Source: an archaeon
GTDB taxonomy: Archaea > Undinarchaeota > Undinarchaeia > Undinarchaeales > JBDRKL01
Assembly: GCA_043814055.1 (NCBI GenBank)
Contig: JBDRKL010000010.1
Location: 20,685 to 84,684, forward strand
DNA: 64,000 bases
Reading direction: 5' to 3'
The notes under the pieces are model-generated. The model saw nothing but the letters and a program-made list of their open reading frames with translations, searched no databases and was not told the origin of the DNA. Shown piece by piece: positions 31,886-48,498 of this stretch. The translations under genes and the position numbers were made by a program. Positions within the stretch are counted from its first letter, which is position 1. Every line of letters begins with the position of its first letter.

Positions 31886-32316
31886 AACTGGTGCTTGACG
31901 CCTCGGCGATCATAAATGGCTTCAGCGAAGAAGGCGAGCTAATGACCACGCTTGCGGTTTCAAAAGAAATAGGCGACCGAGATATCGGTGAGGTTGTAGT
32001 GCGGAACCCTAAAGAGGAATTCGTGCAAATTGTGGCTGAAAAAGTGAAAGAAAAGAACGACAACCTCTCAGAGCAGGACATCGGACTGCTCGCGCTCGCT
32101 CTTGAGTTCAAAGCGCAAGTAGTCACGGACGACTACGGCATACAGAACATCGCGAAGCTTTTAGGCATCAAGTTTATTCCAATTGCTCAGGAAGGAATCA
32201 AGGAAGTTCTCAAATGGCAATATTACTGCCCAGGGTGCAGAAAGCACTACAAACAAGACGGGGTTTGCGGGGTTTGCGGGACTGGGCTGAAGCGGAGAGC
32301 CAAGGAAAGTATATAA
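31882..32316 (+). CDS. nob1: Nob1-like endonuclease (PIN domain plus Zn ribbon)
   Basis: 144 aa. LVLDASAII PIN start, VVTDDYGIQN, and a C-terminal CPGCRKHY...CGVCG ribbon. Confidence 0.7.
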   Translation: MKLVLDASAIINGFSEEGELMTTLAVSKEIGDRDIGEVVVRNPKEEFVQIVAEKVKEKNDNLSEQDIGLLALALEFKAQVVTDDYGIQNIAKLLGIKFIPIAQEGIKEVLKWQYYCPGCRKHYKQDGVCGVCGTGLKRRAKESI

Positions 32317-32348
32317 ACAGTGGAGGTCATCTTTTTTTGGGAGCAAGA

Positions 32349-33026
32349 ATGGTCAAACTATGTAGTAATGCGTATGCTGGGTTTTTTCCCAGATTGCTAG
32401 GCATTTTAATGCTCTTTTCCCTGTTATTACAATTGCCGGTTCTAGCAGCTGATTCCCCTGCTGGCACTTCGCTTGAAGCATCCCCGGGCAATACCCTTGA
32501 TCTTAGCCTTAACTCTGTGCCATACACCCTAACTATTACAGAAGTTGATGTCAGCTCTGTCACATTGACAATTAGGTCAGAAACTACCAAGATGTTCGTG
32601 AAGTTTTTTGACAGCATAACGCTGGACATTGATGAGGACTCTGTGAACGACCTGAGCCTTGTGATAGAAAGCACCCAAGACGGCAAATCGCTCCTAAGAA
32701 TAGAGGAATTAAATCCCAGTATCACAGAGAGCAGCAGCTTAACCGGCTCTTTAACCCAATTAAGCAGAAAGGCCATAAATACCATCATCAAAAAAGTGGC
32801 AGTACCATTACAGGGCTTGGACACAGAAAGAAGCGAGAGGGTATTAAGTAATGGGCAAGCAGAAGCTGGCGCAGCGCACACCCCAACGGGCATGATATCT
32901 TTGCTTGGGCTAGGGTTGAGCGCAGGCGCAGTAATCGGCGCAGCGCTATTGATAGGGTTGCTGGTAGCGATGAGGGAAAAAAGTTTCAAGGAAACCAGAG
33001 AAGGCAGGACGGGGGGAGTTAAATGA
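32349..33026 (+). CDS. secreted protein with a C-terminal membrane anchor
   Basis: 225 aa from ATG 32349. Signal peptide LGILMLFSLLLQLPVLAADS. C-terminal PTGMISLLGLGLSAGAVIGAALLIGLLVAMREK. ATGA overlap with the next gene. The upstream extension to 32214 overlaps nob1 and is rejected. Confidence 0.6.
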   Translation: MVKLCSNAYAGFFPRLLGILMLFSLLLQLPVLAADSPAGTSLEASPGNTLDLSLNSVPYTLTITEVDVSSVTLTIRSETTKMFVKFFDSITLDIDEDSVNDLSLVIESTQDGKSLLRIEELNPSITESSSLTGSLTQLSRKAINTIIKKVAVPLQGLDTERSERVLSNGQAEAGAAHTPTGMISLLGLGLSAGAVIGAALLIGLLVAMREKSFKETREGRTGGVK

Positions 33027-35209
33027 GGCAGGAAGGCGCGCTACAGGTGCTACTTACGCTAATTGCCCTGATTTTTTTCAGCATGGTGGTTCAAGGCGCT
33101 TTTGCAGCTTCTTACACTGTTCGGGTTGAGGATGCCGCCCTCACTACTGATGTCTATAAGCAGCCTGGTGACTTTGTTAATATTGTAATATGGGCTTCTT
33201 CTTCTGGCTCGGCTTCGCTCTCATATAACAATGATTTGAAGCTGGTGGGCGGCGATTCCAATAGTGTATCTTTGTCTTTGGGCAGGAATGTACTGAAATT
33301 TTATATCCCTGAAGATGCGGATACCGGCTTTTATTCCGTGACTGTTGGCTCAACCACTGTGAGCTTTAAAGTCATTACAAATCCTTCGCTGATTATTATT
33401 ACACACCGCAACAGGCTTTTTCAGCGGTATGGTCAGAACTCAAACAGCCAGAGCGGCACTGTAATTTCTCTTTTGGCAAAGGCGTATGAAAAGGCCGACG
33501 ATGGCAACGGCATTGTGTATGACCTCGGCAATTTTGATTCCATGCCTGAATACCTCTGGAGCTCTTATTCCCAATATTCAGAGGAGCCGCTTTCCCCTGA
33601 AGAACTTGACAATTCCTATGCCGTAAGCGCAGGCATTTTCGTGCAGAGCAGGTGCAAGGCGCCAAACTGCGAGAACGTGCTGGTCCTTGGTGATGACTAT
33701 GTCGTCCCGTATTACAGGCGAAGCGTGACAATGACACAGGGCTGGCTGTGGAACCAAGGGGAAGCTACTGAAACAATTTACACAGACCTTTCATATATCC
33801 CAACAAAACGCATGTACTTTTCTGACCTGGACTCGCTTTTTCCCGGCTCCCAAGTGACGATTGTCACGCCGAGTTATGTAAGTTCCGAGTTGAATAACCA
33901 GATTAACGACCTAAAGAACGATCTTAAGTCAGAATACAATGTGGTTGTTAACATCAAGAGTTCTTACAACCTTGCCTGCAATTCCTACCTTGAACTTGGC
34001 GGCACGTTGGTTACAAAAAACCTGATTCTGATAGGTAATGCTGACAACAACAGGGCAATCGCCTGCCTGCCATGGGTTGAGAGCGGGGAGTCAACGATTT
34101 CAATCGAGCGGAACGTGTGGGGCAACAAGGGCAGTGCGATTGTCTTGGAGACCGACGGAAAAAGGCTGGACAGCATCCTAACGCTGAGGAAGCTGATGGC
34201 AGAGCAGGACAAAGATGAGTTTGATTTTGGGAGTGCTGTTGTTGCATGTTTATGGGACGGAAAGTTTGAGGGCGAGCACCCGATGATGCAGGAAGTCAGC
34301 TGCAATATGATTCCCATTGTCGAGCTTGCACCAGACTTCAGGGACTCAATAAAGTGCCTGCTGGAGTCTGAAAAAACAACCATTGATGAGTTTGTCTGTA
34401 AAGTAAACCACTTTGCAACCTTTTATGATCTTGCCGGATATGGGGCTGCTTTCGTCAGTTTTGGCGCTGGCGGGGTGGCTGCCGAGGTCGGAGATACTGG
34501 CGTTTCTGTCTTGAAGGTTGGCTTGAAGAACGCCGCAGAGGGAATTAATGACCCCAAGGTTTTGAAAGCTGCGGCTGATTCTTTCGATGGGTTGTCAATA
34601 ACAAAGAAGGTTAAGCATACTAGTAGCCTGGCGGATATTGTGTACAAGAACCCTGCGAAGTATGAGGAACTAACCGAATCTTGGATTAAAATAATTTCCA
34701 AAGGGGACGGTGTCACGACCACCACTTTTAAGGCAATTGATATTGACGTAGTGGATGTTAAGCATTTGATGCCGGACAAGTTCGCTGATTACGCAGAGGG
34801 CGTGAAAATTGCAGGCTATGCCGATCCTTTGACAGACGGCGCAGGGGTTCATAAAGTGGTGAAGGCATTTAATGCTCCCGGAGTAGTCACGAATGTCATT
34901 GATCCGGGCTCTGTCGTTGTTAAACAGATAGATGGGATGGCGATACTGAAACAAGGAGAGCATATAGGACCTAACAGTGGGTTTGGCCAGGTGCATATGG
35001 TGAAAGAAGGTCATTATGACCAAATTAAAAATGCGTTTGGCCTTGCGGATAATAACAAGGCAGTGGATGAATTCATCCAGGAGGGGTTGGAGAAAGGGAC
35101 GAAGTCAGGTAATACGATCACTTGGGATGTACCCAACAATGAACACAATCTGAAAATCATTTTAAGTGACACGTCTCCCGGCAGCATTCAAATAGCTCGT
35201 CCCGATTAA
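33023..35209 (+). CDS. secreted 728-aa protein of unknown function
   Basis: Signal peptide LLTLIALIFFSMVVQGAFA. A middle region (IIITHRNRLF...VLVLGDDYVVPYY) is reminiscent of gingipain/C25-type non-catalytic subdomains. There is a Gly/Ala hydrophobic stretch near aa 470 and a distinct C-terminal ~230 aa. Confidence 0.6.
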   Translation: MRQEGALQVLLTLIALIFFSMVVQGAFAASYTVRVEDAALTTDVYKQPGDFVNIVIWASSSGSASLSYNNDLKLVGGDSNSVSLSLGRNVLKFYIPEDADTGFYSVTVGSTTVSFKVITNPSLIIITHRNRLFQRYGQNSNSQSGTVISLLAKAYEKADDGNGIVYDLGNFDSMPEYLWSSYSQYSEEPLSPEELDNSYAVSAGIFVQSRCKAPNCENVLVLGDDYVVPYYRRSVTMTQGWLWNQGEATETIYTDLSYIPTKRMYFSDLDSLFPGSQVTIVTPSYVSSELNNQINDLKNDLKSEYNVVVNIKSSYNLACNSYLELGGTLVTKNLILIGNADNNRAIACLPWVESGESTISIERNVWGNKGSAIVLETDGKRLDSILTLRKLMAEQDKDEFDFGSAVVACLWDGKFEGEHPMMQEVSCNMIPIVELAPDFRDSIKCLLESEKTTIDEFVCKVNHFATFYDLAGYGAAFVSFGAGGVAAEVGDTGVSVLKVGLKNAAEGINDPKVLKAAADSFDGLSITKKVKHTSSLADIVYKNPAKYEELTESWIKIISKGDGVTTTTFKAIDIDVVDVKHLMPDKFADYAEGVKIAGYADPLTDGAGVHKVVKAFNAPGVVTNVIDPGSVVVKQIDGMAILKQGEHIGPNSGFGQVHMVKEGHYDQIKNAFGLADNNKAVDEFIQEGLEKGTKSGNTITWDVPNNEHNLKIILSDTSPGSIQIARPD

Positions 35210-35222
35210 GCCTTAGCAATCC

Positions 35223-35693
35223 ATGAAAAACACATACAACACTCAAATATTGGATATAATTCCTTCGACAGTAGATGAAGGGAAAGGGCGGATTATAGAT
35301 GGTTATGTAAAATTAAAAATAAATGACATTGAATTTTGGGCTTTTGCTTTAGAGGATTGGAGAACAGGCAAATGGTCTCTGTCTATGAAGGGCTCCAATT
35401 TATCATTAAAACTTAGTTTTTTGAATCTAAACATACAAGCATCTGAAAAAAAGATTAAACAAATAGTTCCAATACCAAATCAGAAAAAACCCTGTGATTA
35501 CATAATTTATGGCGAAGTTGTTGATAAAGTGCCTTCGTCAAAACTTCCTGATAAATATGAGCGACTTCAGGTTGGATGTGGCTTTGTAGTAGGTGGTGTC
35601 AGTGTAGCTAAGAATCAATTCAAAATCGGCGACTACATCCAGGCAGAAGGCCGCTTGGACGCTTACCGCGTGAAGGAGGCAGATGAACTCTAA
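35223..35693 (+). CDS. hypothetical cytoplasmic protein (AT-rich gene)
   Basis: 156 aa with no signal peptide. It lies 13 nt after the upstream stop and overlaps the giant gene start by 11 nt. Confidence 0.5.
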   Translation: MKNTYNTQILDIIPSTVDEGKGRIIDGYVKLKINDIEFWAFALEDWRTGKWSLSMKGSNLSLKLSFLNLNIQASEKKIKQIVPIPNQKKPCDYIIYGEVVDKVPSSKLPDKYERLQVGCGFVVGGVSVAKNQFKIGDYIQAEGRLDAYRVKEADEL

Positions 35694-38600
35694 CCTAAAA
35701 CCCCCACTGCTCGCAGCACTTATCATAGCCCTGCTCTTGGTAGTCCCAGCTCTTGCACTTGAGCCTGACTATGAGTCCGCTGCAGTTGGCCGCATTGTCG
35801 GCGACACCGCAACGGAGATGGCATCTGTGCTGGACTCAGGCGATTTCTCCTTCCAGCACGCCACATTTTACTCAAATAACGGTCTGCCTTACTCGCCTGC
35901 CATGGACACAAAATATGTCCTTGGCGCGTATTTCCCCTCCCAGCTCACGTCCCAAATAAACGGCTGGAGCTGGTCTGACGTCAGCAGCAGCATGTCCTCG
36001 TGGAAGAATAACGAAATGTTCATTGTTGAGGCGGACAGCATGTTCAGCAGTGGCGACTTAAAGGTTAAGGACAGCCCCTATTATGGAACTTCTTACTTAG
36101 AGGCCTCAGATGTTTCTGGCTGGAAGTCCAGTTTTAGCGCAAAAGACCCTTTGTTTGTGTTTGATGCTGAATACGCAGGCCTGTACCTGCCAAAGAGCTT
36201 TGACTCAACGGACTCTTTTGTTGGTCAGCTTGGCCAGGACTCCAGCATAATTGCCCCAACTGCTGTGCCAAGCGATGAGTTTGTCAAGTCCCTGGTGTGC
36301 TCCATGTATTATTCTGACGGTTCTCTTGGGACTGCTTTCAGGGACGCAAGGAATTCCTACTATAGGAATGCTGAGAACTATGGGGAGCTGCCTGGCCTGT
36401 CCCTGATGTCCTATGAGCTGTACGGCGACCCAAGCGCCTCATTTTCCATGCCAGGGTCGCCAAGCCCGTCTGCAGTTGACCAGTATTGTTACCCCTACAC
36501 AGAGGGCGGCACAGTAAACGTGCCAATGGAGATTGATATTACCAAGAAAGGCGCTGTAGCTGATGACGAGGTCTGGAAGGTCCAGCTGAGCGTTGGCAAC
36601 ATAAAAAATCTCAGGGTCAAGCTAAGCTGGGCGCAGACCAATGCAAACCTTGACCTGACTTTAGTTGACCCGAATGGCAAATCTTATTCCCCTAGTTCTA
36701 CAGGCTCCTCAAACGAGGAAGTCACTGTATGGAACTTCGCCAGTAACCTGCGAAACAAGCCTTGGATAGTAAAGGTAACAGGGACAAATGTCCCGAGCAG
36801 CATTGGTTATGCAAAGTTTGATGTTCTAGCCACTTCTCCTTCTGATGAATCAGGCGGCGGGGGTGGTGGAGGCGGAGGTGGCGGCGGAGGCGGTGCAGGT
36901 GGCGTAAATCTCACATCCATAAGCCTCAATTACCTCTCAGCGTGCTCCCCTGAAAATGGTCTGACTTTTGTAATCAAGGGGACAAAGGCAGGCGAGGGGG
37001 ATGAAATCATAGTAAACCCGGACCAGGCAGCAGGGGAAGCCTTGAAGTATTTCAAGACCGGTCTTGTGATACCAAATTATGCGCAGTGGATTACAATGGA
37101 CTTCAAGCCAGGGCACTTGGACTGGGACAACTGCGGAACTGTTGAAAGAGTTGACCCTATCTTCAGGCAGACTGAGGTCGCCCGCGTCATGTTCGACGCC
37201 GACGTGAAATTAAAGTTTGATGAGTTCGGCTCTGTTTCCGAGACTCTCCAAAAAGAGATGCGGCAGTATTGGATTGATGACATACAAGCAGGGCCGTATT
37301 GGAGCGAACTGTCTGCCAAAGGCTTCAATGAATTCCCTGATTACAAAAGGCGCGCATATATTCATCCAGCGGCATTTGAGGTAAATGGAAGCGGCTGTAA
37401 TATATTCATATCCGAGGCAAAGATGAATGTAACGCATGTGTTTGACTGGGTTGTCCTGGATACTGCGAGATATAGCCTAAGCCCTGAGGTACAGGCCTAT
37501 TTGGACCAGCGCCTTGAGAACTGGGAAAATGTTTTCCAGATGCGGCAGGAAACTGAGCTTGTTTCCAAGCATCTTGAGTCATTAAACAACGATCCAAAGT
37601 ATGCAGAAATGAGGCGGGTCTACACCGCATTGGCGCTTGTACAATGGTACAAACAACAGGACAGGAGCAAGATACCATTTGGAGATATCATTGACTCAAA
37701 CAACATAAGCGGCTTGGAGTCAGACCCCCTATTTGACCAGAGCTATTGGGATGCGCAGGCTTGTCAATTCATGTTCACGACTCCAATGCCATGCGGCTTC
37801 TATGGCGGAACCTGCAACTGGGACTTCGGCGGAGGGGTCTCTCTTGGCTCTGTCCCGCCGGACGTGCTCGGCGAGCTTGACGGGCAGATAAGTGAGCTGA
37901 TGTCAGAGGCAATCACTGCGCCGTATGTGCAGGAGGGGAACGATTATTATTTTGGCGGGGAGATTGTGGCAAACGAGCCTGACCTAAAGCCTGTTGGCAT
38001 GGGCTTTTCCGAGCTATCTCCTGCCACGCAGGAAACCATCAACATAACTGCGGATCTAGCCAATACAGGGCGCACTGGTTCAGCCGGATTCACAGCAAGG
38101 TTCTATGACAAGTACACGTATCCAAATGGTCATGTGGCTGCGTATTTGATTGGGGATGCTAGCGCTCCGCCGCTTGATGCAGGCGCTTCTGAAGCAGTAT
38201 CAGTCAGCTGGAGCACCGGGGATCTCCTGGGTACACATGAAATTTACGTGAAGGTAGACTACAATGGCGAGGTTGATGAATCCAATGAGCTGAACAACCT
38301 GTTAATCAAGGAACTTGCTGTGGTTGACCCTAACCCAACAGCAATGATAATGTATCCTAAAAACGGGGCTGGTTTTTCACAAGGGAGCATTGTGGCTTTA
38401 TCTGGCATAGGAAGTGATGAGCAGGACGGTTTCCTCCCAGAGTCCTCAATTGGGTGGAGCTCAAGCATTGATGGTGGGCTGGGCACAGGATTCCGCCTGG
38501 AGCTTTCCAACTTGTCAGCAGGAACTCATACTATAACCCTGACTGTAACTGACAGCACGGGATTGCGGGATTCAAAGCAGGTGGCATTAACTATCTACAA

Positions 38601-41600
38601 GCCTGATTATCCCCGGGTTTTATTGAGCTCGCCAACAGAAGGGCAGAAGTTTGCAGAGGGTGAGCTAGTATATTTCACTGGCTCTGCTTTTGACCCTGAG
38701 GACGGCGTACTGCCTGATTCTTCACTTGCCTGGAGCTCCAGCATTGATGGCGAATTAGGAACGGGAAAATCAATAATGAGTACAGGCCTGTCAGTTGGTA
38801 CTCACATCATAACTCTCTCAGCCACGGACAGTAGCAGCTTAACATCAACTGCTAACACCAGCATAGTGGTAGAGGAAGGCAGCCCGGTTGCAAGCATTGC
38901 CTCTCCTGCGAGCGGCAACAAGTACTTTCAGGAGAAAGACATATCATTCAACGGCTCTGGCTCTGACCTGCAGGACGGCTCACTGCCAGGAAGCTCCCTT
39001 TCATGGTTATCCAGTAGTGACGGATATCTTGGTCTGGGAGCTACAATCTCCAAAGCTCTGACAAGCGGCACGCATGTAATCACACTCACTGCCACTGACA
39101 GCCACGGCCTTACTGGCACAAGCCAGGCAACCATCGAGGTGCTCCCGCCTGGCTACGCATACTCCTCTATAATGTCGCCGCGCAGCGGACAGGAGTTCAT
39201 ACATGGAAGCACTATAACATTCACAGCAAGCGGAGAGGGTGCGCAGGGGTCTTTACCAAGTTCTGCATTCGCATGGTCCTCAAGCATTGACGGCGCGATT
39301 GGAACAGGCAATTCATTTAATTTTGACTCAACCACCCTGAGCGTGGGAGAGCATGAGATAACGCTCACGGTCAACAGCAGTGGCGGACTGGTTAGCGCGC
39401 TGAAGACTGACATAAATATAACCCCTGCGCCGCCGGTCGCAAGCATTGTATCGCCATCAGCCGGTCAGGCATTTGCTGCAGGCGAAGATACCATATTATT
39501 CAACGGGTCAGCAGTTGACCTAGAAGACGGCGTTCTTGGCGGGGATTCACTCGTATGGTCCTCAAGCATTGAGGGGGGAATTGGGACCGGCGCCTTGTTC
39601 AACAGGACTAACCTGTCCGTAGGGACGCACAAAATAACGCTCACAGCCACTGACAGCGATGGAAAACAAGGCACCGCAGAAGCCAATGTTGTTGTGGTTG
39701 GAATTGGTGAAGCAACGCTAATCATATTCTCCGACGGCTCTGCAGTGAAGAACTTTACATTCTCATCAGCTGGGAGCCAGGTCGCTTCTTTGAAGATCCC
39801 GAAAGAGGGGGATGTAACTTATGCAACAGTGCAGATTGAGGGCAAAACTGCTGGGGGCTATTATGGCGGAGGGAGCCCCAACTTAGTTTCTTACTTTAAA
39901 TTTGAGGAGAGCTCTGGGCAAACCGCAATTGACAGCAGCACCTACCAGAATCATGGGCAGCTTGGATCTACAAATGGGACAGATTCCAGCGATCCAACTC
40001 GGGTAAACGGTCTTATTGGAAAAGCGCTGGAATTTGACAGGTCTGATGATTTCGTCAGTGTGCCTGATGATGACTCACTTGATTTCGGGACAGGAAGCTT
40101 TACTGTAGAGTTCTGGATGAAGCACAATACAATTGTCAGGTCCAGCGAAGCCGGGGACGAGGAGTATGCAGTCATCAAGATGAATTTCGGCAACCACGAG
40201 GGCTTTTATATCAGGATGGACCCGTACCAAAGCACAGCAGGTCAATTGGTTTTTCGAGTCAGGGATACCATACCCAGTACCACAGATCTCCATTCTCAGG
40301 TAGCACTTGACGACAATAAGTGGCATTATATCGCCTGTGTCAAAAATGGCACTTCATCACAGAAGATATACGTGGACGGGGTGGAGAAAGCCTCAGGTAC
40401 GCCACCGGCTGGCAGCACATCCCACAATCAGGATTTGTTCATCGGAAGCAGCCTCCAAGCCAACAGGGTTTGGGGTGGAATTATTGATGAGGTCCGCATA
40501 TCTAATGTAGCCCTGAGCGCTTCTGAGATTAGCGGGCATTATGCCCATGCTGTAAATTGGATTGGCTACTGGAATTTTGACGAGGGGAGCGGACAAATCG
40601 TGGGAGACAAGAGCAACAACAATCATAATGGAATGCTGGGGGCTTCAGAGAATATTGATAACGATGATCCTTTATGGGTGGGTGGGATTTCAGAAAGTGC
40701 ATTGGAATTCGACGGAAACAATGATATTGCTAAAATTTCAGCCGGAACCTGGGATGATTTTGGCAGCAATAGTTTTACAGTAGGATTCTGGGCAAAAACA
40801 AACGAATTATTTACAGACAGTATACATCTCTTGGTCCATAATATGCAGTATTCAGGGGGTCCAAATGCCCTTGGCTGGGACATTGGCATCCTAAAGAATG
40901 GGAGCGTGCTTTTGGATATCCGTGATGGGCACGACGAAGCCCAGGCGTATTCAAATTCAGTGATCAGTGATGGGACATGGCATTATATTGTTGGCGTTCG
41001 AGATGGGTCTTCTATAAAAATATATATTGATGGGAAAAAAGAAGCCACATCGGATTGTTCCAATGTAGACTCAACCAGCAATAGTGACCCCATAAGAATA
41101 GGGGGCAGATACCCGTCTGAAAGCTATTACTTCTATAAAGGTGCTATAGACGAAGTTATGCTTTGGGACTATGCGCTTTCTGATGTGGAAATCCAAGAGC
41201 TATATCCTGGCTCCTCTTTATCATACCCGTTAAACCCCAGCCTGGACGCTGGCTCGGACGGCAATTCTGAGTGGAGCTATGCAGGAGCTTTTGGTGCAAA
41301 GGAAACAACGCAGGACTTTCATAGCGAACTGAACGAGCACCTGCTGGCGTGCACGCCTGTAAACAACATGTGTACAATCCCACTAAAAGTGTCTTCCAAA
41401 TCGGCAGGCATCCTGGAGCTTTCCAACATCAGTATCCAATATTCTATAGTAGACAAGTATCCGCCTGTAATCCACAGCATAGTCATCATACAGAACACCT
41501 ACAAGCCAGGCGAGCTGCTAAAGATTAAGGCCAATGTGTCAGACAACGTTGAAGTGCAGCGGGTTGAGACGGCGCTCAGCAATTCAATAGTACAATTGGC

Positions 41601-44600
41601 TTATAATGAGGTGACTGGGCTGTATGAGGGCAACATGACCGCGCCGCAAAGCGGAAATTACATTGCCAACATAACTGCATTTGACTCTGTCGGGCTGAGC
41701 AGCCAGGCCAATATTTCCATAGAGATAAACTCAGTTAAGCCGGACCTGAGCATAAGCCCGGGCGATATCGTGTACGCGCCGGCTGAGCCAAAGGACGGCA
41801 GTATTGTTGTTGTAAATGCCACGATTTACAACTTCGGCGAGACTGCAGCAAATAACTTTGGGCTGGAGCTGCTCATTGACGGGGTTTCAAGCGAGGCAAA
41901 AATTATTTCAGTCCCAGCAATGTCTGCCACGATGGTGCAATTTGAGTGGGCTGCTGCCTACGGTCAGCACGAAGTTAAAGTGCGCGCTGACTACACCAAT
42001 GCCCTAGATGAGTGGGATGAGTCAAATAATGAGGCTGGGTTCACCTTAACTGTGATAGACGCTGTGCCTCCAACAATACACAGCATATCGGTTGAGCCTA
42101 TGATAGTGCATGAGGGGGACATTGTCTATGTCAGTGCCAATGTTACTGACAACGTTGAAGTGAAGCAGGTCAAGGCAGAAGTTGGCACTGCCAGCAAGGT
42201 ACTTATGTATAACAACGAGTCTGGGCTATATGAGGGCACGATAACAGCGCCTTTTAAGGGATTCTACCATGTCGTGGTTACTGCAACTGACAGGGATGGC
42301 CTGGTAAGCTCCAGGCAGGCAGGGCTCAATGTGAATAGCAATAAGATAGACCTTGTAGTGGGCACTGCTGACATCGCCTTCCTCCCAGCAAGCCCGAGAG
42401 ATGGTGAGTTTGTTAATATTAAGGCGACCATCCACAATACTGGTGCTGCAGACGCAGACAACTTTATAGCAGAGTTCCTGGTTGATGGCAATTCGCATGA
42501 AACTGTCAATGTTTCTGTTCCAGCAAAATCCCAGGCACTGGCAGAATTCACCTGGGTTGCCAGCTATGGCACGCACACGCTTTCAATCAATGCAGATTCA
42601 GAAAATATCATTGCAGAGGTTAATGAAACCAATAACCTGGCTGGGAAGGTTCTGCTGGTTCCGGATACTATTCCGCCGACAATAGAGAGCATAACCAATA
42701 GCCCCGAAATAGTCCACGAGAGCAACCTTGTCACAATAGAAGCTGTTGTTACAGATAACCGCGGCATAGATGTGGTAATTGCAGAATTAAATGGTGCAAA
42801 CATAAGTCTTTCGCCTGATTCAGGCGCATATACAGGTGTGCTAACCGCTCCTGCTGAAGGGAAATATAACGTCAAGGTAACTGCTTTTGATGACAGCAGC
42901 TTGTCCAGCACGCGGCAGGAGCCGCTTGCTGTGCATAGCATTAAGCCGGATATCCAGATAAGAGAGGAAAATGTCACCTTTGTCCCAGAGAATCCTGTTG
43001 ATGAGTCTGTGCTGAGGATAAGCGTTGTGCTGTATAACACAGGTGCAAGCAGCACGGGCAGTTTTGAGGCAGGGCTTATTATAGATAACAAGGCAGTGCA
43101 AAGCAATACTATTTCAGTGGAAGCAGGTTCTAATGTGAGCACAGAATTTTCTTGGAATGCCACTTATGGCAACCACACCCTGAAGATAAAGGCAGACACC
43201 AAGAATGATGTAGCTGAGATAAATGAGTCAAATAACGAGTACACAAAAGAACTATTTATCCCTGACATTACCCCGCCGGACTCTCCAGTGGTTAGCGCAG
43301 ACCCCAGCAGCTGGGCCGCAGACAGCACGCACAAAATATCCTGGGGCAAGATACAAGACCGCAACGGCATAGACCGCTATGAGTACCAGATTGATTATGG
43401 TGAGTGGCATAGTGTCGGGGCTTCTGATAGTTTCAAGACACCAGAGCAGGCAGAGGGAATCCATACTATTTATGTCAGGGCAGTTGATGGGGCCGGCTTG
43501 GCCGGCAAGCCCGGGAATACCAGCATTTACATAGACCAGAGCGCGCCAAACACACCTGTTACAAAGGAATGGCACAGCGGGAAAAGCTGGAGCGCACACG
43601 ATACGCCCTATTACGCTTGGTCTGACCCAGGGGATTTAGGAAGCGGAGTAGCCAGCTATTTGGTAAGTGTTGACAACCAAACGCCAGTCAGCGTAGGGAA
43701 TACGTCCTACCACCCAACATTAGGAACCGGTATGCATACTTTCAAAGTCAAGGCAGTTGATGCGCTTGGGCATGAAAGCGCTTGGTCTGATATAATAACA
43801 GTTTATATAGACACAACATCACCGAGGGTACTAGATGTGGGCTCTCCAACCCACCCGGATCAAGAAACAGTCTACATGGATAATATGCCTTACTTCAATT
43901 GGACTGAACCAAGTGACAACTCAGGAATTTATGGCTATTACTATCTTATAGACAATCTTGAGGGCACAATCCCAACTGAACTGTACTCCTGGGCTCCTGA
44001 ACCTTTTGTAAACTTTACAGGATTTGGCAATCAGGTATATTCAGGCGCAACAAAGAAAGAGATGGGCTTGCCTGATGGCACATGGTACTTCCATGTAAGG
44101 GCAATAGACGTGGTTGGAAATCTTGGGGCAGCCACTCACTACAAGGTAAACATCCTGACGAACGACCCGCCTGAGATTACTTTGTTGCAGCCAAATGGCG
44201 GTGAAATGTGGAGTGGGGTGAAAGAGATAGCTTGGAACGCTTCTGACCCTGATGGTAATTTGCTTGAGTTTAGCGTTTCATACAGCACGGATGGGCTCGT
44301 TTATACCGAGATTGGTAACACAACTGAATTAAGTTATGGGTGGGACACTTCCACAGTAGAGGATATAGACACCTACACGATAAAAGTCGTTGCGAGCGAT
44401 GGCAATGCAACTAGCGAAGACACTTCCGATATAAACTTCCTGATAGACAACACCAAGCCGGAAACAACAGACAATCACGACGAAGCGTGGCACACCCAGG
44501 AGGTAACAATAGAACTGGATGCAAACGATTCTTTCTCTGGTATTGCCGATACCTATTACATCATATACCAGGATGAAACGCCGCAGGAAACAAAGACAGT

Positions 44601-45366
44601 TAGCAGTGATGGCCAGCCGGTTGTGTCTTATGAGGATGATGACAACTGGGTTGAGTACTGGAGCATGGACAAAGCAGGGAACGAAGAGGGGCACAAGTTC
44701 GCCAAGAATATCAAACTCGACAAAACCGCACCCAGCGTGAACATCTGGCTCGACCCAGCTCAAGAAGAGTACCCGAACACAGAACCACTCCCAGTACAAC
44801 ACTCAGCAACAGACCCGCAAGTCCAAGGCACGCCAAGCGGCATCGTGCAGACAACCTTTGACATAGACAGCACTCAGATTGAAGACCCAGCGAACATCTA
44901 CAACTGGCTCGGAACACACACAATAACACTGACAGCGACAGACATCGCAGGGAACATCAACGCTGCGCAGGTAGGATTCAACGTATACCTGCAGCTAATT
45001 GGCGAGGGACAAATAAAAATAACGCCAGAAGTTCTGAAAGTCAACCCAGGACTTCTAACCGCGCACACAACATTCCCAGAACCATACACAGGAGCTGAAA
45101 TACTCAGCGCAACCTGCGACTACGCCACACACGACCAAATCGCAGACACGAACATCAAATTCAGACGCGAGGATGTTGAAACGGCGCTTGCTACGCGGGG
45201 AGAGGTACTTGACACACACTTTGAAGTAGAAGGAACATTTGAGCACAATGACAATGTCTACAAGTTCAAGGGAAGCGATGATATAAGTAAAATAGTCAGT
45301 GCGGAAGAAACTGAGACTGGAGAAATAGCCAGTGAAGAAGGAATAGGGGAAGAGGCGATACAATAG
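35683..45366 (+). CDS. giant (3227-aa) secreted multidomain surface protein
   Basis: Signal peptide. The N-terminal domain ends in YELYGDPS. A PPC-like block (NLDLTLVDPNGK) and a run of about 14 Gly follow. Then come CARDB-like modules, 5 Ig-like repeats, 2 LamG/ConA-like domains and alternating Ig/CARDB pairs. The C-terminal part has Fn3-like modules and an acidic tail. Confidence 0.85.
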   Translation: MNSNLKPPLLAALIIALLLVVPALALEPDYESAAVGRIVGDTATEMASVLDSGDFSFQHATFYSNNGLPYSPAMDTKYVLGAYFPSQLTSQINGWSWSDVSSSMSSWKNNEMFIVEADSMFSSGDLKVKDSPYYGTSYLEASDVSGWKSSFSAKDPLFVFDAEYAGLYLPKSFDSTDSFVGQLGQDSSIIAPTAVPSDEFVKSLVCSMYYSDGSLGTAFRDARNSYYRNAENYGELPGLSLMSYELYGDPSASFSMPGSPSPSAVDQYCYPYTEGGTVNVPMEIDITKKGAVADDEVWKVQLSVGNIKNLRVKLSWAQTNANLDLTLVDPNGKSYSPSSTGSSNEEVTVWNFASNLRNKPWIVKVTGTNVPSSIGYAKFDVLATSPSDESGGGGGGGGGGGGGGAGGVNLTSISLNYLSACSPENGLTFVIKGTKAGEGDEIIVNPDQAAGEALKYFKTGLVIPNYAQWITMDFKPGHLDWDNCGTVERVDPIFRQTEVARVMFDADVKLKFDEFGSVSETLQKEMRQYWIDDIQAGPYWSELSAKGFNEFPDYKRRAYIHPAAFEVNGSGCNIFISEAKMNVTHVFDWVVLDTARYSLSPEVQAYLDQRLENWENVFQMRQETELVSKHLESLNNDPKYAEMRRVYTALALVQWYKQQDRSKIPFGDIIDSNNISGLESDPLFDQSYWDAQACQFMFTTPMPCGFYGGTCNWDFGGGVSLGSVPPDVLGELDGQISELMSEAITAPYVQEGNDYYFGGEIVANEPDLKPVGMGFSELSPATQETINITADLANTGRTGSAGFTARFYDKYTYPNGHVAAYLIGDASAPPLDAGASEAVSVSWSTGDLLGTHEIYVKVDYNGEVDESNELNNLLIKELAVVDPNPTAMIMYPKNGAGFSQGSIVALSGIGSDEQDGFLPESSIGWSSSIDGGLGTGFRLELSNLSAGTHTITLTVTDSTGLRDSKQVALTIYKPDYPRVLLSSPTEGQKFAEGELVYFTGSAFDPEDGVLPDSSLAWSSSIDGELGTGKSIMSTGLSVGTHIITLSATDSSSLTSTANTSIVVEEGSPVASIASPASGNKYFQEKDISFNGSGSDLQDGSLPGSSLSWLSSSDGYLGLGATISKALTSGTHVITLTATDSHGLTGTSQATIEVLPPGYAYSSIMSPRSGQEFIHGSTITFTASGEGAQGSLPSSAFAWSSSIDGAIGTGNSFNFDSTTLSVGEHEITLTVNSSGGLVSALKTDINITPAPPVASIVSPSAGQAFAAGEDTILFNGSAVDLEDGVLGGDSLVWSSSIEGGIGTGALFNRTNLSVGTHKITLTATDSDGKQGTAEANVVVVGIGEATLIIFSDGSAVKNFTFSSAGSQVASLKIPKEGDVTYATVQIEGKTAGGYYGGGSPNLVSYFKFEESSGQTAIDSSTYQNHGQLGSTNGTDSSDPTRVNGLIGKALEFDRSDDFVSVPDDDSLDFGTGSFTVEFWMKHNTIVRSSEAGDEEYAVIKMNFGNHEGFYIRMDPYQSTAGQLVFRVRDTIPSTTDLHSQVALDDNKWHYIACVKNGTSSQKIYVDGVEKASGTPPAGSTSHNQDLFIGSSLQANRVWGGIIDEVRISNVALSASEISGHYAHAVNWIGYWNFDEGSGQIVGDKSNNNHNGMLGASENIDNDDPLWVGGISESALEFDGNNDIAKISAGTWDDFGSNSFTVGFWAKTNELFTDSIHLLVHNMQYSGGPNALGWDIGILKNGSVLLDIRDGHDEAQAYSNSVISDGTWHYIVGVRDGSSIKIYIDGKKEATSDCSNVDSTSNSDPIRIGGRYPSESYYFYKGAIDEVMLWDYALSDVEIQELYPGSSLSYPLNPSLDAGSDGNSEWSYAGAFGAKETTQDFHSELNEHLLACTPVNNMCTIPLKVSSKSAGILELSNISIQYSIVDKYPPVIHSIVIIQNTYKPGELLKIKANVSDNVEVQRVETALSNSIVQLAYNEVTGLYEGNMTAPQSGNYIANITAFDSVGLSSQANISIEINSVKPDLSISPGDIVYAPAEPKDGSIVVVNATIYNFGETAANNFGLELLIDGVSSEAKIISVPAMSATMVQFEWAAAYGQHEVKVRADYTNALDEWDESNNEAGFTLTVIDAVPPTIHSISVEPMIVHEGDIVYVSANVTDNVEVKQVKAEVGTASKVLMYNNESGLYEGTITAPFKGFYHVVVTATDRDGLVSSRQAGLNVNSNKIDLVVGTADIAFLPASPRDGEFVNIKATIHNTGAADADNFIAEFLVDGNSHETVNVSVPAKSQALAEFTWVASYGTHTLSINADSENIIAEVNETNNLAGKVLLVPDTIPPTIESITNSPEIVHESNLVTIEAVVTDNRGIDVVIAELNGANISLSPDSGAYTGVLTAPAEGKYNVKVTAFDDSSLSSTRQEPLAVHSIKPDIQIREENVTFVPENPVDESVLRISVVLYNTGASSTGSFEAGLIIDNKAVQSNTISVEAGSNVSTEFSWNATYGNHTLKIKADTKNDVAEINESNNEYTKELFIPDITPPDSPVVSADPSSWAADSTHKISWGKIQDRNGIDRYEYQIDYGEWHSVGASDSFKTPEQAEGIHTIYVRAVDGAGLAGKPGNTSIYIDQSAPNTPVTKEWHSGKSWSAHDTPYYAWSDPGDLGSGVASYLVSVDNQTPVSVGNTSYHPTLGTGMHTFKVKAVDALGHESAWSDIITVYIDTTSPRVLDVGSPTHPDQETVYMDNMPYFNWTEPSDNSGIYGYYYLIDNLEGTIPTELYSWAPEPFVNFTGFGNQVYSGATKKEMGLPDGTWYFHVRAIDVVGNLGAATHYKVNILTNDPPEITLLQPNGGEMWSGVKEIAWNASDPDGNLLEFSVSYSTDGLVYTEIGNTTELSYGWDTSTVEDIDTYTIKVVASDGNATSEDTSDINFLIDNTKPETTDNHDEAWHTQEVTIELDANDSFSGIADTYYIIYQDETPQETKTVSSDGQPVVSYEDDDNWVEYWSMDKAGNEEGHKFAKNIKLDKTAPSVNIWLDPAQEEYPNTEPLPVQHSATDPQVQGTPSGIVQTTFDIDSTQIEDPANIYNWLGTHTITLTATDIAGNINAAQVGFNVYLQLIGEGQIKITPEVLKVNPGLLTAHTTFPEPYTGAEILSATCDYATHDQIADTNIKFRREDVETALATRGEVLDTHFEVEGTFEHNDNVYKFKGSDDISKIVSAEETETGEIASEEGIGEEAIQ
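38326..39705 (+). repeat. five tandem ~92-aa Ig-like repeats inside the giant gene
   Basis: Recurrent pattern P..G..F..G..I.F.G...D.(E/Q)DG.LP.SSL.WSSSIDG.LGTG...L..GTH.ITLTATDS.GL. Confidence 0.8.
39880..41215 (+). other. two LamG/concanavalin-A-like lectin domains inside the giant gene
   Basis: The paired starts are LVSYFKFEESSGQTAIDSS..NHGQL and IGYWNFDEGSGQIVGDKS..HNGML. Each is followed by ALEFDG..D, FT(V/E)FW(A/M)K, WH(Y)I..V..G and IDEV..(S/W) blocks. Confidence 0.75.
41455..43260 (+). repeat. three tandem [Ig-like + CARDB-like] module pairs inside the giant gene
   Basis: PP(V/T)I(H/E)SI...TDNV(E/G)V...G.YEG..TAP followed by KPDL.(I/V)....I.(F/Y).P..P.DG....(I/V).A.I.N.G...A.NF........ESNNE, repeated three times. 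Confidence 0.75.
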
Positions 45367-45489
45367 CTTAGACTAGTGGGTTTTGCGGGACTACCCTAAA
45401 GTGGCAGATTGTTCAGGCATTCCGTCCTTTCCGTGAACGCTGTTAAAAAATCTTTATAAAGGTGGAACTACACTTTTATTTAGATAAAG

Positions 45490-48400
45490 ATGGCTTTAAA
45501 ATCTCAGCTTAAATCTAGATTTCTTATAATCTCCATTATTTTTTTCCTGCTCTTCGGGGCTGTGGCGGTTTTTGCAGTTTATACCCCAACACCATCCGCG
45601 CCAATGCTTTGCACTCCTGATGTTGCGCACGACAAAGTAAGTTGCAGGGTTGGCGGAGACGGCAACAGGGACCCGTCTTTCTCCTGGCGCGACGGAATAA
45701 ACATAGACCCAGTCAGCCAGTATTGGTCTGGGGACAACCCTGGCATGCGAATTGTTGGCCTTGATATTCCAAACAAATGCAAGATAGACCTCAGAATAGA
45801 AGGCATTTTGTGCAACCGGCTAGACCCTTTTCCCTCATTTGAAGTGCACAAGGAGGGCACAGTCAGCGGTAATGCGTGCTTTATGGACATGGTTGACTTG
45901 CCTTTTGGGGTGGGTGGGATTTGGAACGGGTGCACAGACGTTAATGCCCCGCCTTTTGTTAACGGGGGAGTGACCTATTATTATGAAGAGCCAGCACCAG
46001 TATGCAATGATGAGTGCAGTACAGGCCAATATTCCTGTAATGGCAGTGCGCGAATTGAGTGCGGCAACTTTGACGGGGATTCCTGTCTTGAGTGGGGCAA
46101 TAAGATTGATTGTGAGTATGGATGTGCGCTTGGGGTTTGCGAAGAGCCAGAACCCTTATTATATAATATTTCAGAAAAGCTTTATTTCCAGGCAGAGCCT
46201 TATCTGGAAAATACCTATGTTAATATGGAAGATGAGTGGCAAAAAATAAGCCTCTCTCAATACCAGAAGGTCACCGCCACCGAGCCGTCATTTTTCTTTA
46301 TGCAGGTTGATGAGAACACACGAACCTTTGCGTATGATTATCCCTCTGCTTCTCTGGGTGTAAGCGACAGCTGGGCTGAGCGAAAAGCGAAAATATACGT
46401 TGAGCATCCAAAGGGCTATTCTATGAGTGGAGCATCGGTTTACACAAGCATACCTGTTAGCGATACTATTTCAATATGTGTTGGTAACGCGGTCAATGAC
46501 AAGATAAACAACCTGCCAATAGAAGTTTTTGAGACACTTGGCAAAAAAGCCATTGAAGAAGCAGCCAAAGAAGGGGTTATCTGGGCTTCAGGAGTTGGCA
46601 TACTCCTCGAGTCAAAGAAAGCGATGGATGTTGCAAAATTTGTTGCCTGTACTCAGGAAGATGAGAATAATTATGTTTATATTGGCACGACAAACGAGGA
46701 CGGCTATGCAGAGGTCTGGCTTAGGGAAGGTCAGGATACAGAGATGATGGCTCGTTGGTATGATCTTAACACGCTCTACGGCGGGGTTTCTGTTGTGAAT
46801 CAATACGGATTCCAGGGCTCAAAGAACGTGAAAATTGAAGAATGGATGGGTGGAGTTCCTGAATTCACGATAAGCACAAAGGGCAAGGCGCGTGTAATAA
46901 CTATTCGCGACGAGACTCAGAAGGATATCGACGAAGAGTTAGAGCAAATTTCCAGCTTCTTTGAGAACGAATACGGCATTGAAGTGAATCACTGGACTGC
47001 TGATGACTGGGCTTACGCTCCAAAACCGCCTGTTGGCGGGGATGGTACTGACTTGAAAATTTACCTTGCACGCCTGGATTCCCTGCCTGGTGGTTCGCCA
47101 AATAATATTGGAGTGAACTTCCAGAACTACAATCCAACCCTAGTTTATGAGGGTGTTGCGTGGCAGGTTTTTGATGGCACTAATTGGTATGAAGGTGATG
47201 TTTTTGGACTGGTTGCTGCCGAATCAAGCTTAAAGAAATTTTTAATAGCTGGCCTTGGTAAAAACGGATTTGAAACTGCTGTTGACGCATTCACATCAAA
47301 AGAAATGAACAAGGTCGTCAAGTGGACAGATCCTGTGCAATATGAAACTCTCAAATCGCACGTTTATCAGATTAAAGGCGCAAGCACAGTAGATATCTGG
47401 GAAGCAAAAGTTTGTATTTCAGGCCCTAAAGACGATTGCAAAAACACAAACTCAAATGGAATTGCAGATTTTGGAAAAGTTCCAACAGGAACTTACACAA
47501 TCAGTGTTGAAAAGAAAGGTTATTCAGTTGATTCAACAACTCCTTCTCCACGCCAAGTTGATTTAAACAGCCCAGGCTCAACCCAGTGGGTGAACTTTGG
47601 GATGACTGCTAACGAGTGGAATTACGAAATGCCAGAAGAAGTCCGAGTAAGTGAGCGATTCTATGTATACACCAACTTCACAAACGTGGGTGACGAGCTT
47701 GTTGAGTTCTCCTACAGCACAGAGCTTCGCGGCGCAAAGTTCACGCGGCTTATGCTTCAAGGAACAACAGTCTTCCTTGCTCCTGGAAATTCAGAGCGCG
47801 CCCGATGGGAATTCAGCGCAGACCAGGAAGGCGAAGGAACGCTATGGATAATCAAGGGCAATCAGGAAATAAATACAGGCAAGAAAATCAAGGTCGGTCC
47901 ACTGCCTGATTTGGTTGCTTACATCCAGAAAATAGATGTGTGGGACTACGGCGGGCGAGTGGGGACTGATTTCCAGGTGAGTGTGGAGGTTAGGAACCGG
48001 GAGAACTACTCCGTCAACATTACAGTTGAAATGGTAAACAAGAGCAATAACGCTGTTCTCGAAAAACATAGTTTGATACAGGTGCCCTATGGGTGGAGCA
48101 TATACGGTTTTCAGGTTTGGCGCGAGGCAAATCCAGTTGATTACGTGTTCAATGTACGGTATGACGGCGCGGTAATTGACAGCAAGGACTTTACAGCTCA
48201 GGCAGGCACACAGGTTAATGTGCCTCCTGCGCCAACCAGCATAGGAGGCGGCTCTCCAAGCGTTAGAAGCCCAGCGCCTGCGAACTTGCCAGCAGATGCA
48301 CCAATCGCAGGTGATAGCTCAAGTGGATCTCAAAACGCACTGCCTTCAATGCCACGCAATATCCAGCAAGATACATTTTCTACACCTGCTCAAAATGGGC

Positions 48401-48498
48401 CAACTGGAATGATTTCAGCAATAAGCAGCTTTCCAGCCCATATTGTTAATGTTTTGAACAATGCCTGGAGCTTTATTATAGGATTATTTAGCTGGTGA
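45490..48498 (+). CDS. secreted/anchored 1002-aa protein with a Cys-rich module
   Basis: N-terminal TM or signal segment FLIISIIFFLLFGAVAVFAVY. Cys-rich CNDECSTGQYSCNGSARIECGNFDGDSCLEWGNKIDCEYGCALGVC. C-terminal Pro/Ser-rich linker, then PTGMISAISSF...FIIGLFSW. Confidence 0.7.
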   Translation: MALKSQLKSRFLIISIIFFLLFGAVAVFAVYTPTPSAPMLCTPDVAHDKVSCRVGGDGNRDPSFSWRDGINIDPVSQYWSGDNPGMRIVGLDIPNKCKIDLRIEGILCNRLDPFPSFEVHKEGTVSGNACFMDMVDLPFGVGGIWNGCTDVNAPPFVNGGVTYYYEEPAPVCNDECSTGQYSCNGSARIECGNFDGDSCLEWGNKIDCEYGCALGVCEEPEPLLYNISEKLYFQAEPYLENTYVNMEDEWQKISLSQYQKVTATEPSFFFMQVDENTRTFAYDYPSASLGVSDSWAERKAKIYVEHPKGYSMSGASVYTSIPVSDTISICVGNAVNDKINNLPIEVFETLGKKAIEEAAKEGVIWASGVGILLESKKAMDVAKFVACTQEDENNYVYIGTTNEDGYAEVWLREGQDTEMMARWYDLNTLYGGVSVVNQYGFQGSKNVKIEEWMGGVPEFTISTKGKARVITIRDETQKDIDEELEQISSFFENEYGIEVNHWTADDWAYAPKPPVGGDGTDLKIYLARLDSLPGGSPNNIGVNFQNYNPTLVYEGVAWQVFDGTNWYEGDVFGLVAAESSLKKFLIAGLGKNGFETAVDAFTSKEMNKVVKWTDPVQYETLKSHVYQIKGASTVDIWEAKVCISGPKDDCKNTNSNGIADFGKVPTGTYTISVEKKGYSVDSTTPSPRQVDLNSPGSTQWVNFGMTANEWNYEMPEEVRVSERFYVYTNFTNVGDELVEFSYSTELRGAKFTRLMLQGTTVFLAPGNSERARWEFSADQEGEGTLWIIKGNQEINTGKKIKVGPLPDLVAYIQKIDVWDYGGRVGTDFQVSVEVRNRENYSVNITVEMVNKSNNAVLEKHSLIQVPYGWSIYGFQVWREANPVDYVFNVRYDGAVIDSKDFTAQAGTQVNVPPAPTSIGGGSPSVRSPAPANLPADAPIAGDSSSGSQNALPSMPRNIQQDTFSTPAQNGPTGMISAISSFPAHIVNVLNNAWSFIIGLFSW

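Follow-up and report, generated by a model that had tools for sequence, protein, structure and literature searches.

A probable Sec-dependent polymorphic toxin-immunity pair genetically coupled to a pseudo-caspase-headed giant adhesin in a small archaeal genome

A stretch of 64,000 nucleotides (nt) from an Undinarchaeota genome (contig JBDRKL010000010.1), referred to below as the window, carries five consecutive genes on the + strand, here numbered 1 to 5, the fourth of which encodes a giant surface protein. Genes 2-4 probably constitute one functional cassette, in which a Sec-dependent archaeal polymorphic toxin-immunity pair (genes 2 and 3) is genetically coupled to an adhesin headed by a pseudo-caspase domain (gene 4), and this reading of the sequences is given a rough probability of 0.65. 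Because the next gene, small and cytoplasmic, co-varies with the exchangeable C-terminus of gene 2, the module would follow a toxin-immunity plus adhesin logic and not one of adhesion alone.

The same gene order was found in 13 of the 13 related loci with enough sequence, which are distributed over at least three archaeal phyla. In this order, a gene 2 homologue is followed by one to six small genes without signal peptides and then by a surface protein opening with the head of gene 4, a domain of ~260 amino acids (aa); as in the window, the start of this surface-protein gene mostly lies within the 3' end of the small gene before it. The syntenic loci comprise the window, L007, L008 (with a decayed copy), L009, L010, L011 from a Nanoarchaeota single-cell genome (SAG), L013, L014, L015/L016, L019, and L022 and L023 from genomes of other phyla (G035 and G053, respectively); the 'Methanosarcinales' labels of the metagenome-assembled genomes bearing L012 and L013 may reflect binning and not true taxonomy. 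Among 201 archaeal genomes, the gene 4 head was detected in three and the alpha/beta core of gene 2 in the same three, where the two elements always lie within 3 kb of each other on the same strand. Neither element was present in the 16 other genomes of the window's phylum, which was sampled with 17 species genomes including that of the window. The cassette is therefore patchily distributed, and the idea of its vertical inheritance inside this phylum was rejected.

No counterparts of genes 1 and 5 were found in the related loci, and therefore the conserved unit consists of genes 2-4, synteny of all five genes being rejected for these two. The first-pass annotation, made from the letters of the window, had proposed that the five genes may form a dedicated adhesion or interaction apparatus and not a lone adhesin, and had named synteny across relatives as one of the checks. 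A conserved multi-gene module was indeed recovered, consisting of three genes instead of five and probably following the logic of a toxin-immunity pair plus an adhesin; synteny was confirmed for genes 2-4 and failed for the outer genes, the second of which also has a TATA box of its own.

Gene 2 belongs to an unannotated family, for which a profile search of 1.84 billion representatives yielded 236 clusters, 193 of them at E<=1e-10; homologues were few in a 90%-clustered collection. The constant core, composed of an immunoglobulin (Ig)-like and an alpha/beta domain, is present in all the homologues, many of which carry long N-terminal extensions. Alignment of 12 homologues showed that the Ig-like, alpha/beta, Cys-rich and Gly-rich plus helical parts are conserved to about residue 600, with the Cys-rich block featuring the invariant residues ACLWDGKF...CNMIP.VELAPD.RDS.KC, and that the proteins split beyond this point into unrelated C-termini of ~130-250 aa. 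The Gly-rich segment YDLAGYGAAFVSFGAGGVAAEVGD of the window protein, at residues 465-495, is marginally hydrophobic, with a Kyte-Doolittle mean of 1.1-1.5, which is under the usual threshold for transmembrane (TM) segments.

Searches of Pfam, NCBIfam and the PDB sequences with gene 2 gave no match, Pfam returned nothing significant for its sub-regions or for any of the 12 aligned family members, and the core profile retrieved nothing usable from the PDB; the family has no Pfam or NCBIfam model. In the AlphaFold2 (AF2) model of gene 2 (m0defcc5c7fb2), the predicted local distance difference test (pLDDT) score is 80-94 for residues 30-180 and ~60-90 up to residue 390, followed by a pre-toxin region of low confidence, and Foldseek searches with the full model matched the Ig part only. 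The C25-like character that had been attributed to the 728-aa protein was thus not borne out by Pfam, NCBIfam, PDB sequences or structure comparison, and a clan CD fold was found instead at the N-terminus of gene 4.

Two variations on the family architecture were observed beside the canonical one. In L009 (L009:5137-9999) and L010 (L010:1-4275), the Ig-like domain of gene 2 (residues 33-171 in the window) instead ends the preceding giant gene, which in L009 also carries a Peptidase_S8 domain and is followed by a gene opening at the alpha/beta domain; the placement in both loci reads as gene fission or fusion relative to the window. In three genomes of the same order as that of the window (G012, G008 and G004, loci L004, L005 and L006), lipoprotein-like proteins of ~350 aa end in a Cys-rich plus hydrophobic module like that of gene 2 (A1 positions 227-315, E ~1e-10), which is followed by a basic tail and by no toxin tip, and no gene for the caspase-like head was found in these genomes.

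For the variable C-termini, referred to here as tips, the tails of 30 family members were inspected, and C-termini were clustered by BLAST. The type A tip of the window recurs in the decayed copy upstream in L008, in L015/L016, in L019 and in the protein P0007, whereas PD-(D/E)xK-like tips are carried by L007, L022 and an orphan reading frame of L018, and two HExxH types by L009/L011 (HEHxH) and by L010/L013; L014 and L023 bear further types. More HExxH and PD-(D/E)xK-like variants were encountered among the remaining family tails, one of which matched Scabin-like/NarE ADP-ribosyltransferase (Pfam E 1e-5) and another PBECR1, which is BECR-nuclease-like (E 7e-4). P0007 is a secreted protein of 1173 aa whose N-terminal part is Cys-rich/CarboxypepD_reg, and it shares the type A tip at 48% identity but was not matched by the profile of the gene 2 core even at E 10; the same tip therefore resides on an unrelated scaffold. 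Two of the features by which polymorphic toxin-immunity systems are recognized (Zhang et al. 2012, PMC3482391) are accordingly observed, namely a constant N-terminus joined to a C-terminus that varies between close homologues and, in P0007, one toxin domain placed on unrelated trafficking scaffolds.

A third such feature, a putative immunity gene directly downstream that co-varies with the tip, is provided by gene 3 and its counterparts. Homologues of gene 3, with E values of 7e-56 to 4e-17, were retrieved from L018 (48% identity, E 7e-56), L019 (36%), L015/L016 (31%) and, weakly, L008, and they were seen only directly downstream of type A tips, including the one on the unrelated scaffold of P0007. 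The PD-(D/E)xK-like tips of L007, L022 and the L018 orphan are followed by a gene from a separate family of 189-239 aa, and the HEHxH tips of L009 and L011 by related Zn-ribbon proteins; four tip types each have their own downstream protein family.

An orphan cassette and a decayed copy of the module were noticed in two loci. Downstream of the type A toxin/gene 3-like pair on the unrelated scaffold, L018 (L018:4546-6110) contains an orphan open reading frame (ORF) of 178 aa with hydrophobic helices and a PD-(D/E)xK-like motif (EIDILLKNDDIIEAKNFDW), and then a gene for a 201-aa protein homologous to those which follow the tips of L007 and L022 as putative immunity proteins. Upstream of its intact module, L008 (L008:2-4221) retains a second, decayed copy, comprising a partial gene 2 homologue with a type A tip, a gene 3-like ORF of 174 aa, a 392-aa CARDB/PKD fragment and a caspase-like head split into ORFs of 100 and 292 aa.

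The element that invariably closes the cassette is the N-terminal head of gene 4, for which an AF2 model of residues 1-300 (m6457ab240a86), built from eight homologues, reached a pLDDT of 74.6 and a predicted TM-score (pTM) of 0.74. Foldseek comparison with the PDB gave 29 matches at E<=1e-3, nearly all of them belonging to clan CD, including SAVED-CHAT (E 3.6e-7), MALT1, Csx29, caspases 3/6/8, metacaspases, separase and the CHAT domain of the transmembrane anti-sigma factor DdvA; the TM-scores are modest (0.40-0.45) and the fold assignment is consistent. No match was found to the clan CD families of Pfam, Peptidase_C25, C13 and C14 among them, and sequence and profile searches of the PDB gave nothing usable. 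With the register set by secondary-structure order and not by residue-level structural alignment, the positions after beta3 and beta4, where the canonical His and Cys are expected, read IVEADS and VFDAEYAG in the window. Across the eight homologues the Cys position is occupied by E, D, H, K or A with no conserved His nearby, and the only invariant Cys residues are C206, located in a helix, and C269, located after the domain. As no His or Cys is conserved at the canonical positions, the modelled head is best read as a pseudo-protease, that is, a catalytically dead caspase-like domain. Caspase-like domains are known from polymorphic toxins, where some of them lack catalytic residues and were proposed to be peptide binders (Zhang et al. 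2012, PMC3482391).

Behind the head, gene 4 combines a signal peptide with arrays of CARDB, PKD/Ig and concanavalin-like lectin domains, the features of a CARDB-PKD-LamG adhesin. The domain searches assigned four CARDB (E 2.5e-62) and two Laminin_G_3 domains (3.9e-50) together with PKD, Big_7 and K319L-like Ig repeats. The earlier description of the giant as a surface protein that stacks lectin, CARDB and Ig-like modules agrees with this result for a genome of ~1 Mb; these three kinds of module were all retrieved, and Pfam gave no match for the PPC-like and Fn3-like modules also listed there. The L007 orthologue shares 40% identity over 1391 aa. A C-terminal TM anchor closes the homologues of the giant in L009, L010 and L013, which places the head at the membrane-distal end.

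Some further peculiarities of gene 4 and its head are worth recording. The ~340 aa after the poly-Gly linker (residues 408-745, 36904-37917) match no family and are kept only in the L007 orthologue, the other homologues having a different second domain after the head. A conserved N-terminal peptide, YESAAVGRIVGD, is also of interest for the proposed docking between the gene 2 core and the gene 4 head. In the 209-aa fragment P0151, the Ig-like domain of gene 2 comes directly after a signal peptide and the motif conserved at the N-terminus of the head (ETSSVSRIVGESPTEM), an arrangement that would represent either a recombinant or a hint of functional linkage.

According to the mechanism envisaged for the cassette, gene 2 would be an effector exported by Sec, and gene 3 a cytoplasmic immunity protein shielding the producer. 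The head of gene 4 would capture or display the effector, secreted as a protein of its own, at the stalk's end by means of the constant core of gene 2, and the lectin, Ig and CARDB modules of the stalk would bind a neighboring cell, either host or competitor. Insertion of the Gly-rich segment in the target membrane might help the C-terminal domain of gene 2 across, and the tip would act inside the target cytoplasm. The more general idea, that small-genome archaea own a two-piece contact-dependent delivery device which needs only Sec and in which a dead head far out on the stalk grips the effector core, is advanced tentatively and is more doubtful than the cassette itself. If the head does grip the constant core, warhead and antidote could be exchanged by recombination without any change of the adhesin, and vice versa.

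Several observations weigh against reading genes 2-4 as a toxin-immunity pair served by an adhesin. The type A tip of the window matched no known family, its sole and weak match in the PDB being a hypothetical protein (6n7m, E 0.014), and it was modelled poorly (pLDDT 30-50). Gene 3 likewise gave no match in the family libraries and shows no known immunity fold, and no orphan tip/immunity cassettes or extra copies were found in the window or the rest of the genome. With respect to the proposed coupling, the idea that the gene 2 core and the gene 4 head are homologous halves of one C25-like enzyme was rejected at an hhalign probability of 0.8%, that comparison revealing no relationship, and the P0151 fragment is the sole fusion-like sign linking the two genes. 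Gene 4 of the window closes with an acidic tail and lacks the C-terminal TM anchor that orients the head in the L009, L010 and L013 homologues. Finally, gene 2 could span the membrane with its Gly-rich segment as a true TM helix, as a related module ends the small lipoprotein-like proteins in the fashion of an anchor, and the C-terminal domain would in that case be left inside the producer.

The last point is the starting point of an alternative in which the cassette is a transmembrane surveillance or signalling device: the ectodomain and the adhesin would sense a cell, a virus or damage, and a cytoplasmic C-terminal enzyme restrained by the small partner would be released for regulation or for suicide resembling abortive infection. 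The basic tail after the module of the ~350-aa proteins is what a membrane anchor would show, the small partners, several of them Cys4 Zn-ribbons of a typically cytoplasmic kind, are all devoid of signal peptides, and the CHAT domain of an anti-sigma factor is among the structural matches of the head. However, the hydrophobicity of the Gly-rich segment is well under that of the true anchors of the same operon (2.4-3.0), cytoplasmic immunity proteins are equally expected for exported toxins acting in the target cytoplasm, and tip exchange across unrelated exported scaffolds together with orphan cassettes is typical of inter-cellular toxins (PMC3482391), all of which leaves such a device improbable. 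Still less credit is given to the proposal that the head is an active unconventional peptidase which cuts gene 2 to free the toxin. It would suit the caspase-like fold, the strict genetic coupling of the head with gene 2 and the fact that caspase-like releasing peptidases are common in polymorphic toxins (PMC3482391), but it conflicts with the lack of a conserved His or Cys at or near the canonical positions, with the location of the two invariant Cys residues in a helix and beyond the domain, and with the absence of Peptidase_C25, C13 and C14 matches in Pfam.

It could also be supposed that all five genes form an adhesion or host-interaction apparatus devoid of any toxin, the variable C-termini serving in binding or as enzymes that remodel the surface, and the small proteins as chaperones or assembly factors. 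Such an apparatus would accord with five co-directional and tightly spaced genes, four of them exported, with a giant rich in adhesion modules, with the discussion of DPANN giants bearing PKD, CARDB and LamG as host-interaction devices (PMC5498576; PMC10266531), and with a window tip that has no recognizable toxin fold. Against this, none of the related loci contains gene 1 or gene 5, the latter of which is preceded by a TATA box of its own. The homologous tips include Scabin-like ADP-ribosyltransferase, BECR-type nuclease, PD-(D/E)xK and HExxH kinds, which are typical of toxins acting in the cytoplasm, and the strict pairing of tips with genes lacking signal peptides, like the recurrence of one tip on an unrelated scaffold, is a mark of toxin-immunity systems. 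Given these toxin-type tips and their pairing with partners, an apparatus for adhesion alone is unlikely, and the coupled toxin-immunity pair and adhesin remains the preferred interpretation of genes 2-4.

Polymorphic toxin systems are well studied in bacteria. The cassette resembles them in its constant N-terminal trafficking part, its swappable C-terminal domain, its co-varying downstream gene and the same tip on unrelated scaffolds, as well as in the orphan tip/immunity cassettes of its relatives and the nuclease, ADP-ribosyltransferase and metallopeptidase tips of its homologues. It departs from them in its unannotated core, in the absence of any RHS, LXG, PAAR, filamentous-haemagglutinin or HINT element, in always ending with a separate adhesin gene that has an inactive caspase-like head, and in an export that apparently relies on Sec alone in a single-membrane organism. 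With the CdiB/CdiA/CdiI systems it shares a long surface filament or adhesin, a toxin tip and an immunity gene, contact-dependent delivery being presumed; unlike in those systems, toxin and adhesin are two polypeptides with the immunity gene between them, the tip is carried by the 728-aa gene 2 product and not by the giant, and neither a CdiB-type (TpsB) transporter in the block nor a VENN motif is present. The head of gene 4 has the fold of clan CD proteins (caspase, gingipain C25, CHAT, MALT1), from whose peptidases it differs in lacking the catalytic His/Cys and any sequence-level Pfam match, and unlike the caspase-like repeats of polymorphic toxins it opens a separate adhesin instead of standing just upstream of a toxin domain.

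Among archaea, polymorphic toxin systems were considered rare (Zhang et al. 2012, PMC3482391). Archaeal members were predicted by Makarova et al. 2019 (mBio 10:e00715-19), as cited in PMC8416519 and PMC6393860, and PMC8416519 presents them as predictions that await experimental tests. The gene 2 family, unannotated in the sense of having no Pfam or NCBIfam model, may already be listed in that 2019 survey. The very large Sec-exported proteins with Ig, PKD, CARDB and lectin domains of DPANN archaea with ~1 Mb genomes, namely those of Micrarchaeota Mia14 (PKD/CARDB/LamG, PMC5498576) and the nanohaloarchaeal SPEARE-type proteins (PMC10266531), are similar to gene 4 and were proposed to mediate host contact (PMC5498576; PMC10266531). 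Neither of these two papers describes a coupled toxin-immunity pair or a caspase-like head, and the VirB4/TraG-like ATPase carried by SPEARE-type giants (PMC10266531) is absent here. The VARTIG of Thermococcales (Makarova et al. 2021, PMC8416519) also presents a hypervariable locus of an Ig surface protein with co-varying downstream genes and a polymorphic-toxin-like organization, but no toxin domains were found in VARTIG, in contrast to the recognizable toxin types among several tips of the present family, and no sequence relationship between the cassette and VARTIG was detected. The cassette is set apart from bacterial polymorphic toxin systems and contact-dependent inhibition by the unannotated core, the separation of toxin and adhesin with the immunity gene between them, the pseudo-caspase head and the lack of nearby secretion machinery.

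The five genes are placed among archaeal housekeeping genes (aIF5A, aRF1, ValRS and acetyl-CoA synthetase) in a genome of 0.98 Mb that is assembled in 14 contigs and 82% complete (Table 1). Their sizes, strand and four junctions are exactly those given in the first-pass annotation: genes 1 and 2 overlap by 4 nt (ATGA), genes 2 and 3 are separated by 13 nt, genes 3 and 4 overlap by 11 nt, and 123 nt lie between genes 4 and 5. Its count of four proteins with signal peptides or anchors, and of a cytoplasmic 156-aa protein, was reproduced as well, since the N-termini of genes 1, 2, 4 and 5 are strongly hydrophobic at signal-peptide strength (Kyte-Doolittle 19-aa mean of 2.4-3.0) and gene 3 has no hydrophobic N-terminus or any other hydrophobic segment on the same scale. 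Only gene 1 has a C-terminal TM helix. Genes 1, 2, 3 and 5 gave no family match in Pfam and NCBIfam, apart from a weak Pfam match of gene 5 to CarboxypepD_reg, and neither a transporter gene within the five-gene block nor dedicated secretion machinery encoded nearby was found.

Table 1. Positions of the genes, domains and candidate promoters described in the text
Feature	Position	Strand	Remark
TATATAAA box, candidate archaeal promoter of genes 1-4	32310..32317	+	read from sequence; 39 nt before ATG 32349
Gene 1, 225-aa type-I membrane protein: signal peptide, one beta-rich ectodomain, PTGMIS, TM helix, basic tail	32349..33026	+	
Gene 2, 728-aa secreted polymorphic-toxin-like protein, unannotated family	33023..35209	+	
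Gene 2 constant core: Ig-like domain (residues 30-121) and alpha/beta domain (122-395)	33110..34207	+	
Gene 2 pre-toxin region: Cys-rich block, Gly-rich segment, helical region to ~residue 600	34214..34822	+	
Gene 2 tip of 'type A' (exchangeable), with motif GEHIGPN.G(W/F)G..H	34823..35206	+	
Gene 3, 156-aa cytoplasmic protein, candidate cognate immunity protein	35223..35693	+	
Gene 4, 3227-aa giant surface protein (adhesin)	35683..45366	+	start overlaps gene 3 end by 11 nt
Gene 4 head (residues 27-262), clan CD (caspase-like) fold lacking the His/Cys dyad	35761..36468	+	
Gene 4 poly-Gly linker (residues 391-407)	36853..36903	+	
Gene 4 CARDB (766-874), then ~5 PKD/Big_7-type Ig repeats (880-1340)	37978..39702	+	Pfam
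Gene 4, two Laminin_G_3 (concanavalin-like lectin) domains	40039..41142	+	Pfam, E 3e-53
Gene 4, three CARDB alternating with Big_7-type Ig domains	41737..43242	+	Pfam
Gene 4, three OmpL47-type beta-barrel domains	44497..44982	+	NF047446, E 1.4e-17
TTTATAAA box after A-run, candidate separate gene 5 promoter	45453..45460	+	read from sequence; 37 nt before ATG 45490
Gene 5, 1002-aa secreted ORFan outside conserved module	45490..48498	+	

A longer frame of gene 1, starting at 32214 and encoding 270 aa, overlaps the upstream gene by 103 nt, and because of this overlap and of the TATATAAA box at 32310 the 225-aa start is more likely. The upstream gene (31882-32316) encodes a Nob1-like protein with a PIN domain (PIN_5/PIN_6) and a C-terminal Zn-ribbon, and its 3' end contains the candidate TATA box of gene 1. 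Hydrophobic peaks of the gene 1 product fall at residues 4-39 and 178-213. Its ectodomain is similar only to stretches inside further large surface proteins from the same genome, and a small-anchor-partner family was rejected for gene 1 on account of this restricted similarity. Gene 5 has no full-length homologue among 5.8 billion proteins or in 61 genomes, and a search of the PDB sequences gave nothing usable. The only part of gene 5 with relatives is a Cys-rich module of ~75 aa (CNDECSTGQYSCNG...CEYGCALGVC, residues 146-222, 45925-46155), which is shared with three distant archaeal genomes and also matches, in the upstream giant of L009, the segment directly ahead of the Ig-like domain; in many gene 2 homologues, C-x-C-rich stretches of a similar kind lie before the core. 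Genes 1 and 5 appear to be surface proteins particular to this lineage and to flank the cassette by chance, gene 1 probably being co-transcribed with it and gene 5 probably standing under its own promoter.

Both flanking genes encode the motif PTGMIS (32883-32900 and 48400-48417), for which different codons are used (CCAACGGGCATGATATCT and CCAACTGGAATGATTTCA, respectively). In gene 1 the motif is followed by the TM helix and the basic tail, whereas no TM-grade segment follows that of the C-terminus of gene 5. Similar ends were seen in two other proteins of the same genome, one of 1208 aa (C12:5250-8876, - strand) with GGPTGLAV, a TM helix and a basic tail, and one of 2012 aa (C4:4915-10953, - strand) ending in ...ASGLATLG, a TM helix and RKKG. 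Ends of the PTGMIS type look like a C-terminal sorting signal. The substrate signal of archaeosortases (PGF-CTERM-type) is tripartite, consisting of a short motif, a TM helix and a basic tail; a search of the 82%-complete genome for exosortase/archaeosortase (PF09721) gave no match.

The putative toxin-immunity pair is small and testable, comprising a tip of ~130 aa and a partner of 156 aa, and the obligate partner of this effector family is an unusual one, namely a giant adhesin with an inactive caspase-like head. If a two-piece delivery device of this kind is real, the target of an episymbiont could be its host cell, and the cassette would be a weapon of host manipulation more than one for killing competitors. 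Docking of the effector on the adhesin head, if true, would explain how organisms with ~1 Mb genomes deliver effectors without specialized secretion machines, and part of the large 'dark' surface proteome of DPANN-type archaea would thereby receive a function.

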